IMG/VR virus record: IMGVR_UViG_3300020040_000015
Span: 1 to 6,311 of that record
Length of the DNA stretch: 6,311 nucleotides
Source: a virus
Strand: one strand, 5' to 3'
The notes beneath the pieces were generated by a model. It searched no databases, was not told where the DNA came from, and saw only the letters and a program-made list of their open reading frames with translations. This document shows, piece after piece, positions 1 to 6,311 of this stretch. Positions within the stretch are counted from its first letter, which is position 1. The number at the start of each line of letters is the position of its first letter. Made by a program: the position numbers and the translations under genes.

Positions 1-75
1 ATAGTCAATGAATCCATATTTTGCAATTCTTTTTGGCGTTGAGTGTACAGCGCGAAGAACTCGAGCAATCGCAAT
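1..75. repeat. Terminal redundancy, copy 1 of 2. It is identical to 6237-6311 and marks a circular genome or assembly overlap.
   Basis: Base-by-base comparison shows atagtcaatgaatccatattttgcaattctttttggcgttgagtgtacagcgcgaagaactcgagcaatcgcaat at both window ends. A minus-strand ORF reads through the junction in frame. Confidence 0.95.
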
Positions 76-1149
76 ACTATCGTCATTGCGAGCAGACGAG
101 AATCGGGGCAATAAGGTACGGATATACGACATGGGTGGAGTTGACCGAACACTGACTCCGTTGAAATTATAGATTCTTCCATTAACGACAGAATCGATTT
201 TTTGCTCAATCTGCGCATAAGGGTCCTCACCTTCCACGAAATCACAACCTTTCTCAAAGAATCCGAGAGATGCTCTCGAGCGGGGTCTAAACGCGCGGCA
301 TGAACGATATAATAAGGGAGCAGAACTAAGGCTATTAACGTAACTCGAAACGTATGAAGAAGCCCCACCTCGGGCAATCTGGAAATCTGAACGACCGAAT
401 TTCCAACTCTTATCGTGACAGTATCGTAATACCTCTGAGACTTCTTTCGAGTTTGTGAATAATAAGATATGATAATGCGGACGGAAATGGACAGGGCCGT
501 ACTCACCGACAGCGTAGAAATGTAACGTCTCATAAGAACCTAATTGTTTATATAAATATTTACGTAATCTTTTAATATAGTTCTGAACATCAACATAGTT
601 TAAAAAGGGAATAAGGTTATCACAACCATATTGTTCAGAAGCGGGATAATCCGTTTTGTCAACCGATTGCGTCTTATAGATAAAATTACGAATAGCAGCC
701 ATACTGAGAAACCAATTATCTCTAACAGGAATATATTCCTTAATCGCACGGTCAAACGGCACTGTGCCTTGTACTTGCTCGAAGAATATATGACGCAACG
801 CGGAGTCATCATCACATTGATATTCGGAAACAGGGATATATTTATGACGTTCATCACCAAAATGGATATCCCCTGAGATACCTACAACGTCCTCATATTC
901 ACTATGCAGAACTTTACAATTAAACAGAGGAATATGTTCGTTATCATACGTAAGCGTCACAAAATAAGAATACTTAAAAGCACTTCCAGCGGTCTTCACA
1001 CGCATGGACGCCTTTTTAGCACGCTTATGAATACAATAATCACATTGACCACAATCTACGGCAATGCGTGCACCAGTGTAACGATTAGTAATAAACGAAC
1101 GATACTGACAATGATCAGTCGCTTTCAATAAATCAGGAGAAAATTTCAT
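1..1149 (-). CDS. VP4: Replication initiation protein (Microviridae VP4 / protein A-like HUH endonuclease), N-terminal 383 codons. The ORF runs off the window edge and continues at 6236 on the circle.
   Basis: My own translation from the ATG at 1149..1147 gives MKFSPDLLKATDHCQYRSFITNRYTGARIAVDCGQCDYCIHKRAKK...FVTLTYD...EYGPVHFRPHYHILLF...GGASSYVSSYVNS...AKYGFIDY, with no stop down to base 1. It contains a Cys cluster (CGQCDYC), motif I (FVTLTY, aa 63-68), HUH motif II (HYH at nt 469-477) and a YxxxY catalytic pair (Y266/Y270, nt 340-354). The supplied ORF track does not list it, apparently because it has no in-window stop. Confidence 0.93.
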   Translation of the reverse strand, partial: MKFSPDLLKATDHCQYRSFITNRYTGARIAVDCGQCDYCIHKRAKKASMRVKTAGSAFKYSYFVTLTYDNEHIPLFNCKVLHSEYEDVVGISGDIHFGDERHKYIPVSEYQCDDDSALRHIFFEQVQGTVPFDRAIKEYIPVRDNWFLSMAAIRNFIYKTQSVDKTDYPASEQYGCDNLIPFLNYVDVQNYIKRLRKYLYKQLGSYETLHFYAVGEYGPVHFRPHYHILLFTNSKEVSEVLRYCHDKSWKFGRSDFQIARGGASSYVSSYVNSLSSAPLLYRSCRAFRPRSRASLGFFEKGCDFVEGEDPYAQIEQKIDSVVNGRIYNFNGVSVRSTPPMSYIRTLLPRFSSARNDDSIAIARVLRAVHSTPKRIAKYGFIDY

Positions 1150-1151
1150 AA

Positions 1152-1460
1152 TTATTTACGTTTATCAATCACTTGATGACGGTTACGCCTACCAAATGAA
1201 ATATGAATAAATGTAGGATATAATATTAGCTGATCAAATACATGAACATTGTCTGAATAACTATGAATATGTTCAAGTAATCGACCATAAGTAGTAGAGC
1301 CATAAGGTTTAATATCAATAACCTCTCCAAACAGATGCTGCGAATTAGAAACACCACCGGCAGCCTTATTTTCAGCAACAGAACGTTTAGCGCTTGTTAT
1401 CGTAAAATGCAAATTAAAACATAACAGATGCTCAAGAAAATCCATAAGAGTAGAATTCAT
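1152..1460 (-). CDS. Zinc D-Ala-D-Ala-carboxypeptidase-like cell-wall peptidase (Peptidase_M15_3-like), a putative endolysin.
   Basis: The 102-aa ORF contains ITSAKRSVAENKAAGGVSNSQHLFGEVIDI, which fits the family pattern S-x-x-R-S-x-x-x-N-x-x-x-GG-x-x-x-S-x-H-x-x-G-x-x-x-D. A downstream FIHISF could supply the third metal ligand (the fvHvD position). Its ATG (1460..1458) overlaps the upstream stop as ATGA, and its stop lies 2 nt before the rep ATG. The family assignment is from remembered motifs, not a search. Confidence 0.72.
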   Translation of the reverse strand: MNSTLMDFLEHLLCFNLHFTITSAKRSVAENKAAGGVSNSQHLFGEVIDIKPYGSTTYGRLLEHIHSYSDNVHVFDQLILYPTFIHISFGRRNRHQVIDKRK

Positions 1461-1540
1461 AAGCCAATAGCATTAAGGACATAACCCAAGGCAGCAGACA
1501 CAGCGCCAATTATAATTTTCCAAATATTACTACTTTTCAT
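1457..1540 (-). CDS. Small membrane peptide of 27 aa with a single Gly/Ala/Ser-rich hydrophobic helix. It is a candidate holin-like or signal-anchor element coupled to the peptidase.
   Basis: The ATG at 1540..1538 gives MKSSNIWKIIIGAVSAALGYVLNAIGL. It has Lys at positions 2 and 8, followed by 19 uncharged residues. Its TGA (1459..1457) overlaps the peptidase ATG. The track shows a 74-aa version from a GTG/ATG at 1681/1678, but that would lie almost wholly inside the 64-aa ORF in another frame, so the true start is uncertain. Confidence 0.45.
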   Translation of the reverse strand: MKSSNIWKIIIGAVSAALGYVLNAIGL

Positions 1541-1724
1541 CACTCTGAGATTTAAGTTCAACAAAATTATTTTCCTCTTTAATCGAATCCACAATGACAA
1601 TAAGACCCAGCGAAGAAACTCGCTCAGAATAATCTCCAAGGCCATCGAGAGAATTGACAATATAAGGCGAAATAACATCACGACCAGTGTTTTTGTCTTT
1701 AACTGAAATAATAAACTTTTGCAT
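1530..1724 (-). CDS. Hypothetical protein of 64 aa and unknown function. It is the first gene after the predicted promoter.
   Basis: The ATG at 1724..1722 lies 51 nt downstream of a TAtaTTTG box. The composition is balanced and hydrophilic (MQKFIISVKDKNTGRDVISPYIVNSLDGLGDYSERV...SQSDEK). It ends with TAG at 1530-1532, overlapping the start of the small membrane peptide by 11 nt. I recognise no motif. Confidence 0.55.
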   Translation of the reverse strand: MQKFIISVKDKNTGRDVISPYIVNSLDGLGDYSERVSSLGLIVIVDSIKEENNFVELKSQSDEK

Positions 1725-1775
1725 AATTATAAAAATTTTAAAGGGTTAATAATAGTTGTAACTTCTAACTGGGGG

Positions 1776-1806
1776 CAAATATACAGATTATTTTTATCAA
1801 ACCAAA
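1776..1806 (-). promoter_or_regulatory. Candidate Bacteroidota-type promoter with a -33 TTTG, a 19-nt spacer and a -7 TAtaTTTG.
   Basis: The minus strand reads cTTTTGgtttgataaaaataatctgTATATTTGccc. The -7 box is the complement of 1776-1783 and the -33 TTTG is the complement of 1803-1806, separated by 19 nt. This matches the published Bacteroides consensus (TTTG / TAnnTTTG). It is followed by the ORF64, peptide, peptidase and rep genes. Confidence 0.5.
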
Positions 1807-1874
1807 AGAAAACTGTTTTTTTTTAGATTCTACCATAGAGTGTGAGTTGTGCGTTTATAGACAAGAGATAGGAG

Positions 1875-1897
1875 AATTCGAGAGGATAACTCGAATT
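1875..1897. repeat. Perfect 8-bp inverted repeat forming a stem-loop with a 7-nt loop.
   Basis: The arm aattcgag (1875-1882) pairs with ctcgaatt (1890-1897) around the loop aggataa (1883-1889). It is nested inside an imperfect helix of tgtgcg (1848-1853) with cgcaca (1903-1908), extended by agt (1845-1847) with act (1911-1913) after a 2-nt bulge. Confidence 0.65.
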
Positions 1898-1963
1898 TGC
1901 TTCGCACACAACTAGGGGCTTCGCTTAATTAACAAGTGGATGTATACAGAGGTGTATAGGCAC

Positions 1964-1986
1964 GGCAAGGCAGAAACTGTCTTGCC
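1964..1986. repeat. 10-bp inverted repeat forming a stem-loop.
   Basis: The arm ggcaaggcag (1964-1973) pairs with ctgtcttgcc (1977-1986) around the loop aaa. There are nine Watson-Crick pairs and one G:T on the plus strand, which becomes an A:C mismatch on the minus strand. Confidence 0.65.
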
Positions 1987-2127
1987 TTTGCGCACCTACG
2001 TGCTAAAATACCGAAGCGGAACGCTTCTCTAAGGAAGTCGCTCCGCTCCATATTTCGATCAGGCCCTACGCGGGCGGCGGGTGTATATCGCTCAAACGCC
2101 GCGATGGGCTTTTAGTCCTGAAGAATG

Positions 2128-2295
2128 CTACCTAACAATCGGCTCTTTTTTATATGATTGTTTAGGAATTATACGATAAGTATAAATAGGATTAGACTCA
2201 AACTTAGAAATCCATTTAAAAGCATCATCCATAGAGTTAACACGCAATGAAAATACAACTTTACGTCCTTCTGTAATTCTTAATTCGTAATACAT
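2128..2295 (-). CDS. Hypothetical small protein of 55 aa. It falls below the ORF-track length cutoff.
   Basis: My own translation from the ATG at 2295..2293 gives MYYELRITEGRKVVFSLRVNSMDDAFKWISKFESNPIYTYRIIPKQSYKKEPIVR, ending with TAG at 2128-2130. An in-frame TAA lies 5 codons upstream of the ATG. The composition is protein-like, and a TAtaTTTG box sits 26 nt upstream. Confidence 0.5.
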   Translation of the reverse strand: MYYELRITEGRKVVFSLRVNSMDDAFKWISKFESNPIYTYRIIPKQSYKKEPIVR

Positions 2296-2321
2296 AATAT
2301 ATCTGTTTTAGTTTCACATTA

Positions 2322-2355
2322 CAAATATACGAAATAGTTTGCAAAGTACAACAAA
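2322..2355 (-). promoter_or_regulatory. Candidate Bacteroidota-type promoter with a -7 TAtaTTTG but suboptimal -33 spacing.
   Basis: The minus strand reads cTTTGttgtacTTTGcaaactatttcgTATATTTGtaatg. The -7 box is the complement of 2322-2329. TTTG elements lie 12 nt (2342-2345) and 22 nt (2352-2355) upstream. The octamer is identical to the one at 1776-1783. Confidence 0.35.
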
Positions 2356-2377
2356 GTTGGAGTTAAAAAGTATTAAT

Positions 2378-3493
2378 TTATCTACGGCCAATACTATTGC
2401 CAACACCTTGAAAAACACGAGTACCATAATCAAGAGCATTACGCAATTCATAAGAATTAACGTCCTTCTGTTTCTGTTTGGAACTCCACTTATAATAATC
2501 ACGCAAGGCTTTTTCTTTAGAATACTCCATATTCTTAAGAACATTCGTATTCTTAGAATCCCATAATGAACCTAAACCACGAGCACGATTAGACTGAATA
2601 TTTGCATAAATCAAAGAATCAGCAGTCTGAGAAGCAATCCTATTGTTGATACGAATACCGTTCGTTTCAGCAGCAGTCTTTACAGCCTGTGCCATTTGAT
2701 TTTTATACTGGGCTTCAGAAAGAGCACCTTGGGCATACAAATTAGCCAAAGTCTGACCTTTAATAAACAAGTCAGCTTGTTGTTGTTCATCAAGGTACTT
2801 ATTAAGTACCTGTTGGGCTTCAGAATCAAGAAGAATCTGTGATTCTTGGGCCGATGTAAGACGACCTGCAAACTCCATATTCTTAAGTTCCTGATACTCC
2901 TTAGACTGATCTAATAAAGCAGAACGTCTACCAGTAGAAGCATTCCAATAGCCAGACTGGCCGACACCGATATTACGATAATTGGTATCACCAAGAATCT
3001 GATTAATACGGTAGGGGGTAAGAGCAGCATTTTGTTCCGCATTCATCATCGAAGCACGAGCCTGAGCCATAGAAGCAAGAGCAGTACCAACATCCGAAAA
3101 ATCAGGACGGAATGCCTGTAAACTAGGAGCGGGAGAAGCGGAAGCAGCAGCACCACCAGAAGCGGGAGACTTAGAGCCAGCCATAGCGGCAGAACCTTGA
3201 ACAAACGGGTTTAAACCACGAGAAATCATCGCATTAGGAGAATTATAAGAATTATTCATTCCCCACATTTTCTCGTGCCAATCACGTTGAATTTGAGCTT
3301 GCTGAGCATTAAATGCATTATTTTCACGGTTAATATCAATACTAGTCTGGTTGGTCTTATTCTGTGAAGAAGCGCCAATAGCATTACCAGCAAGTGAAGC
3401 ACCAGCAGCAATAACGCCACCAAGAACAAGCGGAGCAATATGCTTTTCGGAAAGCCCCATTAAGGGGCTTTCTCCAATATCATAGAACCTCAT
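2378..3493 (-). CDS. VP2: Minor capsid / DNA pilot protein (VP2 / protein H-like).
   Basis: This is a 371-aa ORF. It has an N-terminal Gly/Ala-rich hydrophobic segment (LVLGGVIAAGASLAGNAIGASS), an Ala/Ser/Gly-rich low-complexity stretch, then a Gln/Ala-rich region that looks helical. Size, composition and position next to the capsid genes fit microvirus pilot proteins. The ATG (3493..3491) overlaps the upstream TGA as ATGA. Function is assigned from composition and synteny, not from a motif. Confidence 0.72.
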   Translation of the reverse strand: MRFYDIGESPLMGLSEKHIAPLVLGGVIAAGASLAGNAIGASSQNKTNQTSIDINRENNAFNAQQAQIQRDWHEKMWGMNNSYNSPNAMISRGLNPFVQGSAAMAGSKSPASGGAAASASPAPSLQAFRPDFSDVGTALASMAQARASMMNAEQNAALTPYRINQILGDTNYRNIGVGQSGYWNASTGRRSALLDQSKEYQELKNMEFAGRLTSAQESQILLDSEAQQVLNKYLDEQQQADLFIKGQTLANLYAQGALSEAQYKNQMAQAVKTAAETNGIRINNRIASQTADSLIYANIQSNRARGLGSLWDSKNTNVLKNMEYSKEKALRDYYKWSSKQKQKDVNSYELRNALDYGTRVFQGVGNSIGRR

Positions 3494-3933
3494 TGAACAG
3501 AAGCGTCAGGGGCGGGCGATGGATCGGGCGCTGACTGTTGCTCTGCCAACATTTCCTGAGCGAACTTAGTAAGTTCAGACTTCTCACTAGCCAATTGTTG
3601 AAGAACAGCCTGTCGTTCCGACATCGTCTGACAATGTCGGGAAATAACACAAGCGAATCGTTCCTCATCAGTCATGCCATCCATAACAGTAGACTGAGTA
3701 GGGTGCATCTGGGCAAGGATGTTCTGAACGTTCATATCACCAAGGAGACGACGATATTTTTCTTGATTCAGCAGAATCTGAGTCATATCAGCTTGAATCA
3801 AATCACCGTCTGAAGTTTCATCGTACATGACTGAATCATATACAGATTGCTGATAACACGGATTATCCTCAACCAATTCGGGGATAACCTCATTTTTAAT
3901 ATAATCGGGATTTTTATAAGCAAAACTTCTCAT
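3490..3933 (-). CDS. Hypothetical protein, possibly an internal scaffolding protein (VP3-like by size and position).
   Basis: The track ORF (3490..3942) begins at a TTG. The first ATG is at 3933..3931 and gives a 147-aa product (MRSFAYKNPDYIKNEVIPELVEDNP...). The protein is acidic, has a Pro/Ala/Ser tail and sits between the capsid and pilot genes. No diagnostic motif was recognised. Confidence 0.6.
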   Translation of the reverse strand: MRSFAYKNPDYIKNEVIPELVEDNPCYQQSVYDSVMYDETSDGDLIQADMTQILLNQEKYRRLLGDMNVQNILAQMHPTQSTVMDGMTDEERFACVISRHCQTMSERQAVLQQLASEKSELTKFAQEMLAEQQSAPDPSPAPDASVQ

Positions 3934-3944
3934 AATAAACAAAA

Positions 3945-5687
3945 TTAATAAGGTAAACCATTACGATCCAAATTCTGCACAGCATACACTTGGAAATTAA
4001 CATTACACAGTAATTGATCGAATGCAACAGAACAATTGGCAGAATCGATCTGAGGAACAAATATAGAGTTTAACTGTTGAGGACGAACCTTCATGGACTG
4101 ATAAGACCAAGCACCAGCGGAAGTAAGAACTTGCCAACCATCAAGAGGAGCAGCCCAAGACTGATAAGCAGCACCAGCACGGAATCCAGCGTGGACAGTA
4201 TCAATATTAGATTTCCACTGCCAGTAGCGTAGATTATAACCTAAAGCACCAGAAACATTACGGCCAGGATTATTTTGAAGATTAAGAGCAGGAACAGACT
4301 GCATACCAAGCTGGTCAAACGCAGGCTGGGGGAAGTCAGAAATAGCAGTCACAGTCAGCTGAGGAGCCTGTCCTGTCAAATTCCAATCCAACATAGGTAC
4401 AGCATGGTAAACACACATAATTATCTGATGTTCAGCACCACAATCATAAGTAAGAGTATGGCCAGAGTTACTAGAGATACCTTTACCAGCAATAGATGCC
4501 TGAGAAGTATCAGTATCGAGATTAGTATTAACAACCTCATTGATATTGATTACACTAGACCAACCTCCGATATAATGTGCATGATTGCCCATATATTCGG
4601 GAGCCTTAATACCAAACTGAGCAGCCATCTGATCTGAATAATCCTTGCTAGAAAATTGAACTACTTCCTTCCAACGTTGAAGATATTCGGTGGCACGGAT
4701 TGAGAGGGCAGAGAGGTCAGTATTGACGCGAAGCAGTCTATCAGAACTAGTAGAGTTAGCTGAAGTTGTTTGCACAGTATTACCGCCAGAAAGATTACGA
4801 ACAGATGAATTACTAATACCATCAGTAGCACGAGCAAGAATAACATTAGACGCAACAGTTTTATCAAGAGGTTGGAGGAATGCTACTGAACCATACTGAG
4901 AAGAGGGTAACATACCCATGAAATAATCCTTAGGATAATTGGCGTAGCGCAACTGAACCATATCCGTAACCAATCCAATATTACCAGTACCAGACCAATA
5001 GTCTACATTATAAGCATAAGCTTTATGTTTCTCCCATTGACTATTGCTGAAAAAGTCATAATAAATCTTCTGATACGCAAGGAATGGAAGAGCATTAACT
5101 GTCTGTGAAACCTGATAAACCAAGGGGTTGGCAGCGTCACCAAGATTATCAACGCCTAGATATTTCTTAGTAATAGCAGCCTTACCTGTATTAGAACTAG
5201 AAATCATAGAGCCATAACCAAGCAAATCAAGCAACTTACAGGAACCGTAGACAATAGGGAGGCCAGCATCATCACGGGTATTAGTCTGGTCACCAGCATT
5301 AGCTGTCTGAAGAAATAGACTAATAATCTGTTGGGAAACATTAGGTACAGAAGTAAGCGCAGAGGTATTCGCAGTAGAACTAGCAGCACTAGTCATATAA
5401 TCCGTCATCTGAGTAAATGCCTGCGGAAGCGCACGGGAAATCAGACGCAACGGCACAGCATAGAAATCATAATACTCCTTAATACGAGTATAAGCGGCTG
5501 TATTTACCGGAACAGTACGCGTAAACCAGTCAGAAGAAATACGATACTTAGTATCGGGAATAGCAATCTGCCAATAACAAGGAAGGATCTCACCAACCTT
5601 GGCTGTAAACAATTTTTTCGAACTTAAATCGAAAGAAGACCGATGGGTAGAAATTTTAACTCGGTCTAAAGGATTAAAATCACTCAT
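3945..5687 (-). CDS. VP1: Major capsid protein (Microviridae VP1 / protein F family).
   Basis: This is a 580-aa ORF with an ATG at 5687..5685 and a TAA at 3945-3947. Its N-terminus (SSFDLSSKKLFTAKVGEILPCYWQIAIPDTKYRISSDWFTRTVPVNTAAYTRIKEYYDFYAVPLRLI) follows the characteristic F/VP1 pattern. That pattern is FDLS...G.L.P, then a short hydrophobic stretch, then PGD/PDT, then a Y/F-F-VP-R-L block. It is the largest ORF, as expected for a microvirus. Confidence 0.95.
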   Translation of the reverse strand: MSDFNPLDRVKISTHRSSFDLSSKKLFTAKVGEILPCYWQIAIPDTKYRISSDWFTRTVPVNTAAYTRIKEYYDFYAVPLRLISRALPQAFTQMTDYMTSAASSTANTSALTSVPNVSQQIISLFLQTANAGDQTNTRDDAGLPIVYGSCKLLDLLGYGSMISSSNTGKAAITKKYLGVDNLGDAANPLVYQVSQTVNALPFLAYQKIYYDFFSNSQWEKHKAYAYNVDYWSGTGNIGLVTDMVQLRYANYPKDYFMGMLPSSQYGSVAFLQPLDKTVASNVILARATDGISNSSVRNLSGGNTVQTTSANSTSSDRLLRVNTDLSALSIRATEYLQRWKEVVQFSSKDYSDQMAAQFGIKAPEYMGNHAHYIGGWSSVININEVVNTNLDTDTSQASIAGKGISSNSGHTLTYDCGAEHQIIMCVYHAVPMLDWNLTGQAPQLTVTAISDFPQPAFDQLGMQSVPALNLQNNPGRNVSGALGYNLRYWQWKSNIDTVHAGFRAGAAYQSWAAPLDGWQVLTSAGAWSYQSMKVRPQQLNSIFVPQIDSANCSVAFDQLLCNVNFQVYAVQNLDRNGLPY

Positions 5688-5705
5688 AATTAATTAATAT
5701 TTAAA

Positions 5706-6311
5706 TTAAACCATACGGTTGAAAACACCATTAGCGTCATTAAGCTTTTTATGCTTAATCATATCACGACAGTATGTCGCACTACGGTGCCGGAGTTGTT
5801 CAAGGAGTTGAGACGTTTCACTTAAAACATTCTGCAAGACATCAATTTCCTGCCCGTTCTGAGGCAACACAAACATACAATCTGATATTTCTGGGTTAGC
5901 GGATCGTATGTTGAATGCATCTCGTAGACTTTCATAATCCTTTTTCTTCTCATATTCTATACCTTTTCTAAGAATAAATAAAATACGATTGGTGTAAGAA
6001 CTAAGATCGCAACCGAAGTCAGGCAAATGCCAATTACGGAAGAACTTATAGACATATAAGAACAAACGGTATAACCGGTCAACATAACGTTCAATATCAA
6101 CATCACTAGAACAGTTAACAAACCTAGTAAGACACCGAGAAGTATGTAATATAATTTTGTCATCATCAGTAAGAATAGAATTAGCTTTAAGATATTGATA
6201 ATAAGTACGAACAAGGCTCAAGACTGAATCCTGTCCATAGTCAATGAATCCATATTTTGCAATTCTTTTTGGCGTTGAGTGTACAGCGCGAAGAACTCGA
6301 GCAATCGCAAT
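5706..6311 (-). CDS. VP4: Replication initiation protein, C-terminal part. The unique portion is 5706..6236 (176 aa plus stop), and 6237..6311 repeats codons already counted in 1..75.
   Basis: The frame is open from the window edge (6311) down to the TAA at 5706-5708. The offsets 6311-6236=75 and 6236-6221=15 are both multiples of 3, so it is in phase with the 1..1149 ORF. The track's 171-aa ORF starts at an internal TTG (6221) and is a truncation. The junction reads ...KYGFIDY|GQDSVLSLVRTYYQYLK.... Confidence 0.85.
   Translation of the reverse strand: MAIARVLRAVHSTPKRIAKYGFIDYGQDSVLSLVRTYYQYLKANSILTDDDKIILHTSRCLTRFVNCSSDVDIERYVDRLYRLFLYVYKFFRNWHLPDFGCDLSSYTNRILFILRKGIEYEKKKDYESLRDAFNIRSANPEISDCMFVLPQNGQEIDVLQNVLSETSQLLEQLRHRSATYCRDMIKHKKLNDANGVFNRMV
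6237..6311. repeat. Terminal redundancy, copy 2 of 2. It duplicates 1-75, so the unique genome is 1..6236.
   Basis: This is the same 75-nt string as 1-75. It lies inside the rep reading frame, so it is not a biological terminal repeat. Confidence 0.95.

Follow-up and report, generated by a model that had tools for sequence, protein, structure and literature searches.

The 6311-base window analysed here (positions 1 to 6311 of IMG/VR record IMGVR_UViG_3300020040_000015) is a complete circular microvirus genome, in which all genes lie on the minus strand and the major capsid protein (MCP), VP3, VP2 and Rep were identified. Its locus of interest is a short chain of open reading frames (ORFs) that ends at Rep, in the order ORF64, a small putative membrane protein, an M15 peptidase and Rep. 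In the initial annotation, a 27-codon hydrophobic ORF was described as overlapping the start of a 102-amino-acid (aa) peptidase through a shared ATGA. The coordinates, both translations and the overlap were all recovered on the minus strand (Table 1). A 74-aa version of the hydrophobic ORF, mentioned there in passing, proved to be important.

The 27-codon ORF (MKSSNIWKIIIGAVSAALGYVLNAIGL) encodes a single Gly/Ala/Ser-rich helix of weak hydrophobicity behind a short basic N-terminus. Across 37 unique relatives retrieved via the peptidase, its pN/pS was 0.15, with variation at the third position of 20/20 codons and at the second position of 2/20. None of 40 sequences carried a stop in this frame, and stops occurred in 32/40 and 38/40 in the other two frames, so that the frame is conserved in relatives. 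Two further samples were drawn from IMG/VR. The first was selected with a degenerate DNA pattern for IGAVSAALGY and comprised 105 microvirus contigs. The second, independent of the peptide, was anchored on 117 relatives of ORF64 and yielded 74 evaluable loci, in which the peptide was present in 74/74 and the peptidase in 71/74. Judged by these sequence patterns and by its intact state in ~180 related microvirus loci, the 27-codon ORF is a real gene, far beyond chance. It is unannotated in every GenBank record inspected. In Dulem viruses 226, 238 and 243 (L008, L009 and L010; PP511396, PP511323 and PP511322; locus 838-1212), the coding sequence (CDS), labelled 'peptidase' or 'hypothetical protein', begins 21 codons upstream of the true ATG. 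This extension runs in the peptidase frame, is not conserved, contains stops in most relatives and overwrites the peptide gene.

The 27-aa helix has a maximal KD17 of 2.05, a summed Hessa dG of ~ +1.4 kcal/mol and a G+A+S content of 37%. Measured against comparator sequences, these values fall in the range of signal-anchor-release (SAR) domains and pinholins, as the initial annotation had suggested, and are unlike those of phiX174 E. A lipoprotein or spanin reading of the peptide was ruled out, as it has no Cys and no lipobox. The sole match in the NCBIfam scan was at chance level (E = 0.1) and involved the C-terminal fragment of Rep, with nothing at or near a curated cut-off. In addition, a Gly/Ala-rich transmembrane (TM) segment near the N-terminus of VP2 (LVLGGVIAAGASLAGNAIG, residues ~14-40) resembles the small peptide (IIIGAVSAALGYVLNAIG), NAIG being common to both. 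The local alignment is marginal, 113 of 5000 composition-preserving shuffles scoring as well (p ~0.02), and the likeness could reflect partial duplication, an interaction surface or convergence.

The membrane frame continues upstream of the 27 codons into ORF64. Counting the ORF64 stop, which is found 8 nt past the internal ATG of the membrane frame, ORF64 and the 27-codon ORF overlap by 11 nt. In 80/80 unique relatives, no stop interrupts the membrane frame over at least the 53 codons that precede this ATG. The longer product of 73 aa starts at a conserved ATG at ORF64 codons 16-17, and its first 47 codons lie over ORF64 in the +1 frame. The statistics that bear on overprinting are pairwise and position-level on related sequences, their counts not being independent trials. 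With the ORF64 protein fixed and synonymous codons drawn at random, the +1 frame was open in 0.7% of trials (a chance of 0.007). ORF64 has 21 codon positions at which a synonymous exchange could introduce a stop into the +1 frame. The use of such codons was 0/1082, whereas the rates at equivalent positions of the controls were 39.6% (peptidase gene), 28.3% (Rep) and 4.2% (ORF64 codons 1-15); counted by position, the figures were 0/21 in ORF64 versus 18/29 and 19/56 in controls. Many of these 21 positions do vary, yet among the allowed codons alone.

Furthermore, synonymous variation in ORF64 is depressed where the two frames overlap. Its pS goes from 0.46 (codons 1-14) to 0.20 (codons 15-30) and 0.15 (codons 31-45) before rising to 0.36 (codons 46-60), and the fall from the conserved ATG onward is significant (Mann-Whitney p = 5e-4). 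This drop is explained by the third positions of ORF64 being the second positions of the +1 frame. Outside the overlap, the pS of codons 1-14 equals that of the peptidase and the peptide, and the values there (pN 0.087, pS 0.459) place ORF64 itself under purifying selection. Altogether, the signatures at ORF64 support an overprinted gene. ORF64 had no match in Pfam, PHROG or NCBIfam, and a homologue of 57-58 aa occurs in mar63 (MZ089809, L336) and in a sister clade whose MCP is 37% and whose peptidase is 47% identical to those of the window. Two variants of this region were also observed. In the 5571-nt contig L095 (IMGVR_UViG_3300014538_000037), a deletion takes most of ORF64 and the membrane frame is open as a 66-aa fusion (MVLSPQFLKINLEFLRWVLLLLWIRLRKK...), which may mark a defective genome or hint that the overprinted frame matters more than ORF64. 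In L121 and in proteins such as P0151, P0154, P0198 and P0220, the open frame extends back beyond the start of ORF64, forming ORFs of 126 aa that begin MVLSPQFL....

The 73-aa ORF has been called ~160 times as protein clusters, always as hypothetical, and has no Pfam domain. AlphaFold2 (AF2) predicted helices at residues 2-49 and 51-71 (pLDDT 89, pTM 0.43). Its hydropathy profile comprises an N-terminal hydrophobic or amphipathic stretch with E15, E20 and R23, a basic linker (RLKRK...) and, C-terminally, the strongest TM candidate. The membrane frame of the sister clade is closed 12-14 codons upstream and the short peptide stands alone, which suggests that the C-terminal helix is the shared functional unit. 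Either the 27-aa ORF yields its own product from the internal start, or it is the C-terminal part of the 73-aa ORF left free by the overlap. In the clade of the window, the pattern of constraint indicates that the 27 codons are probably the C-terminal helix or tail of an overprinted 73-aa membrane protein. Thus, the initial view of the 27-aa peptide as the unit held insofar as it is part of a real gene and gave way, in this clade, to its being most likely the tail of the longer frame.

Downstream, the membrane ORF meets the peptidase at plus-strand positions 1457-1460, where TCAT reads ATGA on the coding strand. The proposed conservation of this overlap was borne out: it is kept in 98/105 motif-selected contigs and in 70/74 ORF64-anchored loci, with GTGA in one more. 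Because ATGA joins the stop of the membrane ORF to the start of the peptidase, a ribosome that terminates on the former would reinitiate on the latter. The bases before ATGA vary among relatives (GGATTA, GGACTA, GGTTTA, GGCTTA and others), indicating that no slippery site or heptamer is present. The geometry of the junction also differs across clades, from ATGA or GTGA to a stop, 3 nt and an ATG in the sister clade and a gap of ~9 nt in mar56.

The 102-aa product itself was assigned by profile search, which supported the M15-type peptidase proposed at the outset. It matched Pfam PF08291 Peptidase_M15_3 (E = 2.2e-8; 34.6 bits against a gathering cut-off of 23.2) and PHROG 894 'endolysin' (E = 2.6e-13). 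The predicted H/D/H metal ligands correspond to H42 (1337..1335), D49 (1316..1314) and H86 (1205..1203), in the expected pattern of H-x6-D plus a distal H. All three residues are invariant in 39 close homologues and also in 11 more distant M15 peptidases of microviruses (32-47% identity), and the SxHxxGxxxD stretch could be aligned with the zinc DD-carboxypeptidase 1lbu. No signal sequence or TM segment was found in the peptidase, whose N-terminal maximal KD17 is 0.6-1.1, in agreement with the first description. In addition, the N-terminal ~40 residues (hF.LsEF motif) of the 138-178-aa microvirus M15 enzymes are absent from it. This short form is abundant, with 1725 homologous clusters that lie mostly on ~6-kb contigs, and its pN/pS of 0.36 in the alignment of relatives indicates purifying selection. 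The AF2 model (pLDDT 76.7) found predicted microvirus and caudoviral M15 peptidases in BFVD at TM-scores of 0.5-0.7, with E down to 3e-4 for non-close relatives, so that the fold is supported by sequence and weakly by structure. On these sequence features, the product is a truncated, signal-less M15_3 zinc peptidase with an intact triad, probably of the LAS type.

As the initial annotation had cautioned, the enzyme alone is already known in microviruses. M15_3 peptidases had been described from 11 Microviridae of gut and lung origin, in a study that made the case for their horizontal transfer and suggested that they serve as endolysins (Roux et al., 2012; PMC3394797). Peptidases were later listed among lysis-associated accessory genes in a study from whose analysis overprinted genes were left out (Kirchberger et al., 2022; PMC9239249). 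The homologues are annotated 'peptidase' in GenBank records of Dulem, bajarodmic and mar microviruses, and those of tailed phages are annotated endolysin. For gut microviruses, the earlier premise of Microviridae lysing their hosts with no muralytic enzyme is outdated. An IMG/VR search for relatives of the L155-type peptidase confirmed none.

The membrane gene and the M15 gene co-occur in 98/105 motif-selected contigs and 71/74 ORF64-anchored loci. Seven genomes of the window's clade (IMG/VR contigs L072, L085, L093, L095, L106, L121 and L144) keep ORF64 and the peptide without an M15 gene. None was found in them with 12 diverse queries, all of which found the positive control; other enzyme classes were not searched exhaustively. 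The membrane protein can therefore do without the peptidase. A T-rich spacer of ~50 nt, conserved as one haplotype, separates the peptide stop from the ATG of Rep in these genomes, and most of them also have a distinctive peptide C-terminus, ...ILSAIGV. They fall at at least five places in a neighbour-joining tree of Rep that carries no support values. This distribution suggests cassette exchange by recombination. Since these genomes retain it, the membrane gene is, on sequence evidence, the constant, conserved core element of the clade, and the peptidase a nearly ubiquitous accessory.

The reverse situation was found in mar63 (4577-5055), where the ORF64 homologue of 58 aa is joined by ATGA to a 101-aa peptidase without a peptide between them. 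No small TM ORF was found between these two genes or in the 820-nt region upstream. The annotated Rep CDS of this genome overlaps the peptidase by 120 nt. Taken with the seven peptidase-less genomes, mar63 contradicts the suggestion that the peptide is a dedicated export partner of the peptidase. Pairing with a small membrane ORF nevertheless recurs elsewhere. In the sister clade, a 29-aa peptide (MKSETKSKIWSAIIAAAVSLLTSIAQIFS) directly precedes the peptidase in 9/9 genomes, with a stop, one codon and an ATG at the junction, and is weakly similar to the peptide of the window (20/5000 shuffles). In a third lineage (bajarodmic 465, mar57), a conserved TM ORF of 29-30 aa overlaps the 3' end of a full-length M15 gene.

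The remaining features of the genome are listed in Table 1. Directly downstream of the peptidase, the lysis-like module adjoins the Rep gene, and a TTG-start ORF of 171 aa at 5706-6221 is the in-frame C-terminal part of the 584-aa Rep, with no separate gene. No Shine-Dalgarno motif was found at any gene of the genome, the usual start context being 'taatt ATG'. A Bacteroidota host fits this context, although the assignment is only an inference. The nearest public genomes belong to uncultured microviruses sampled from dogs, lemurs, marmots and humans. A scan of GTDB genomes with the peptide DNA motif gave 17 matches, 0 of them in a microvirus-like record; mostly on chromosomes or large contigs of Dehalococcoidia and similar, they were taken as chance and not inspected further. 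Scans of the whole window for tRNA and Rfam families gave no match, including in a GC-rich island at window positions 1900-2100 of the intergenic region (52% GC versus ~30% nearby). As single-stranded DNA, this island is predicted to form several stem-loops (-41.7 kcal/mol, z = -3.67, 0/200 shuffles equally stable). It reads as a pseudo-ORF, 'MERSDFL...', and recurs in relatives with frame-shift-like changes, so that nucleotides rather than protein seem to be conserved. The island could be a complementary-strand origin or another structured element.

Table 1. Coordinates of genes and other features in the 6311-base window.
Feature	Position	Strand	Remarks
Major capsid protein (MCP)	5687..3945	minus	PHROG 514, E = 7.8e-53
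VP3-like protein	3942..3490	minus	
Pilot protein VP2	3493..2378	minus	
Intergenic region	1725-2377		654 nt
ORF64	1724..1530	minus	acidic 64-aa protein; host of the overprinted frame
73-aa membrane ORF	1457..1678	minus	ATG start; 74 aa from GTG at 1681; frame shared with the 27-aa ORF
Small hydrophobic 27-codon ORF	1457..1540	minus	MKSSNIWKIIIGAVSAALGYVLNAIGL
ATGA overlap	1457..1460	minus	membrane-ORF stop / peptidase start
M15_3 peptidase	1152..1460	minus	102 aa
Peptidase/Rep junction	1147..1154	minus	TAA stop, two bases, Rep ATG (TAATTATG)
Rep	start 1149, wraps window ends to 5706	minus	584 aa

A holin-endolysin-like cassette is favoured for this locus because the enzyme lacks a signal, its presumed substrate, peptidoglycan, lies beyond the inner membrane, and its start overlaps the stop of a membrane ORF. 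The proposal of a two-component lysis cassette, in which a holin-like membrane protein is translationally coupled to a signal-less endolysin, is given about an even chance on this sequence evidence. In the compact overlapping chain of this mammalian-gut microvirus clade, the membrane protein would be made from the +1 frame of ORF64, as 73 aa and possibly also as 27 aa from the internal ATG near the ORF64 stop. Reinitiation at ATGA would then supply the peptidase. The membrane protein would insert and accumulate in the inner membrane and permeabilise or depolarise it in the manner of a holin, and the 11.7-kDa signal-less zinc peptidase could then reach and cut the peptide cross-links of peptidoglycan. 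The broader proposition is that gut microviruses outside the phiX174 group possess an overprinted lysis gene, whose 73-aa (maybe 27-aa) product is a minimal holin for a coupled, truncated M15 endolysin. It is more tentative and is judged less likely than not.

Several observations weigh against this interpretation. As a membrane protein, the product is unusual for a holin: it ends ...YVLNAIGL inside the TM helix, with no charged C-terminal tail of the kind typical of holins, and, with ~ +1.4 kcal/mol, a single helix of 19-22 residues makes only a marginal TM segment. The idea of a glycine zipper was not supported, as the clustering of small residues on one face of the helix is not significant (2050/10000 shuffles). 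The 27-aa and 74-aa ORFs had no match in Pfam or PHROG, holin families included, and the 27-aa ORF had none in NCBIfam. As an enzyme, the peptidase is incomplete, as the match covers positions 38-107 of the 108 in the PF08291 profile and the N-terminal third of the domain is absent; a Foldseek search of its model against the PDB gave no match at E <= 0.001. Furthermore, no outer-membrane (spanin-like) component was seen. The two genes can also be parted, as in the seven peptidase-less genomes and in mar63, and several other M15-bearing microvirus lineages have no convincing mini-TM ORF adjacent to the enzyme.

The strongest competing explanation, itself unlikely, is that the membrane protein is a stand-alone lysis protein that blocks a step in the supply of peptidoglycan precursors, as E does at MraY or LysM at MurJ, with the peptidase as a helper. 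In its favour, the gene is overprinted as E is on D, the seven genomes without a peptidase still carry it beside ORF64, and it is the more constant of the two genes in the ORF64-anchored loci (74/74 versus 71/74). Very small single-TM lysis proteins are also known, such as LysM with 37 aa (PMC12506998). However, no similarity to E or to any PHROG lysis family was detected, and the helix is unlike that of E in dG (+1.4 versus -3.4 kcal/mol) and in G+A+S content (37% versus 11%). In ~95% of genomes, the gene is tightly coupled through ATGA to that of a muralytic enzyme without a signal, and the simplest account of this link is that the membrane protein lets the enzyme reach the wall. Moreover, the window encodes an M15 peptidase, and lysis without a phage muralytic enzyme fits the seven peptidase-less relatives alone. 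This explanation overlaps with the holin-like cassette, and sequence cannot separate lysis and non-lysis readings.

A role outside lysis is regarded as improbable. The membrane protein would here be a burst modulator like phiX174 K, a factor of superinfection exclusion, or a protein that interacts with or mimics the VP2 N-terminal TM domain, and its position beside the peptidase would merely reflect sites open to the insertion of accessory genes. The occurrence of each gene without the other is compatible with such a role, and the single spacer haplotype of the peptidase-less genomes is consistent with a cassette-like gain or loss. The resemblance of the peptide to the VP2 segment (G.V.AA...NAIG) also points in this direction and lies weakly above shuffles (113/5000, ~0.02), yet it is marginal for sequences so short and biased. 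Mere proximity does not account for the conserved start/stop overlap with the peptidase, and an M15 gene is accompanied by another mini-TM ORF in two more lineages.

Finally, the possibility that the pair is one SAR or signal-anchored endolysin gene, split by an assembly error or by a frameshift repaired in translation, is very improbable and for the most part already refuted, even though the peptide, with its basic n-region and G/A/S-rich h-region, resembles a signal-anchor separated from its enzyme, an exact fusion would follow from a -1 shift at ATGA, and the sister-clade peptide and peptidase are in the same frame with one stop between them: the identical two-ORF layout recurs in >100 independent assemblies, the peptidase frame upstream of its ATG carries stops in 32/40 relatives, the peptide persists in genomes with no peptidase to fuse to, and it is under tighter purifying selection than the enzyme (pN/pS 0.15 versus 0.36). 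A split SAR endolysin or 1-nt assembly error, as raised in the initial annotation, was thus rejected. A programmed -1 frameshift or readthrough fusion was likewise set aside as unlikely, given the freely varying bases before ATGA, with no conserved slippery sequence or heptamer, and a junction geometry that is clade-dependent.

Comparison with known systems places the candidate cassette between several precedents. The closest are the M15_3 genes of gut Microviridae, which share the enzyme family, the kind of virus and the proposed role of a horizontally acquired endolysin (Roux et al., 2012, PMC3394797; Kirchberger et al., 2022, PMC9239249). Term searches of the text of these two papers showed no membrane partner, 'holin' appearing only in bacterial prophage contexts and 'transmembrane' only for VP2. 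Beyond them, no microvirus holin, membrane partner or lysis protein was found in searches of open-access literature. The enzyme of the window differs from those genes in being the 102-aa form without the N-terminal third of the domain. In phiX174, E within D is likewise a small membrane protein in the +1 frame of another microvirus gene, with the frame kept open and synonymous change in the host gene depressed. E, however, has a strongly hydrophobic N-terminal transmembrane domain, acts alone on MraY without a muralytic enzyme and has no sequence similarity to the protein described here, whose best TM helix is C-terminal, G/A/S-rich, outside the overlap and in a gene start/stop-coupled to a peptidase.

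The holin-endolysin cassettes of tailed phages (class II, pinholin S21) also have a membrane gene directly upstream of, and overlapping, the gene for a muralytic enzyme that lacks a signal or depends on the membrane. Similar to class II holins, the protein of the window has 73 aa, a G/A/S-rich helix and two candidate starts. It differs in matching no holin family, in lacking the charged C-terminal tail and in occurring without an endolysin as well, and its second start lies 46 codons downstream, compared with 2-3 codons in holin dual-start motifs. The 29-aa single-helix peptide of the sister clade is shorter than any holin known to us. SAR endolysins (P1 Lyz, R21) carry a similar weakly hydrophobic Gly/Ala/Ser-rich helix. 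In those enzymes the SAR helix is part of the enzyme polypeptide, whereas here it is a separate conserved ORF in another frame. LysM (SglM), the 37-residue single-TM lysis protein of the ssRNA phage M, is likewise a very small single-pass protein of a minimal phage genome (PMC12506998). It acts alone by blocking MurJ and has no sequence relation to the ORF of the window, which is instead coupled to a peptidase.

To our knowledge, lysis by microviruses other than phiX174 is unresolved, and the crossing of the inner membrane by a signal-less M15 enzyme has gone unexplained since an endolysin role was proposed in 2012. As far as could be found, the conserved, unannotated and coupled membrane gene, the sequence evidence for its overprinting and its independence from the peptidase are new. 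Lying directly upstream of the enzyme, this gene offers a concrete and testable answer to how the peptidase may cross the inner membrane. GenBank annotation misses the gene or overwrites it by extending the peptidase CDS, and current microvirus gene catalogues omit at least one real gene. The evidence for overprinting extends the theme of E in D from phiX174 to abundant gut microviruses. If the proposed role is true, the locus would represent a holin-endolysin system in a ssDNA phage with the smallest holin-like component known, and the lysis gene that is missing from a large group of gut microviruses would be accounted for. Should the 27-29-aa forms be active alone, few known lysis effectors would be smaller, and they would be easy to synthesise and test.

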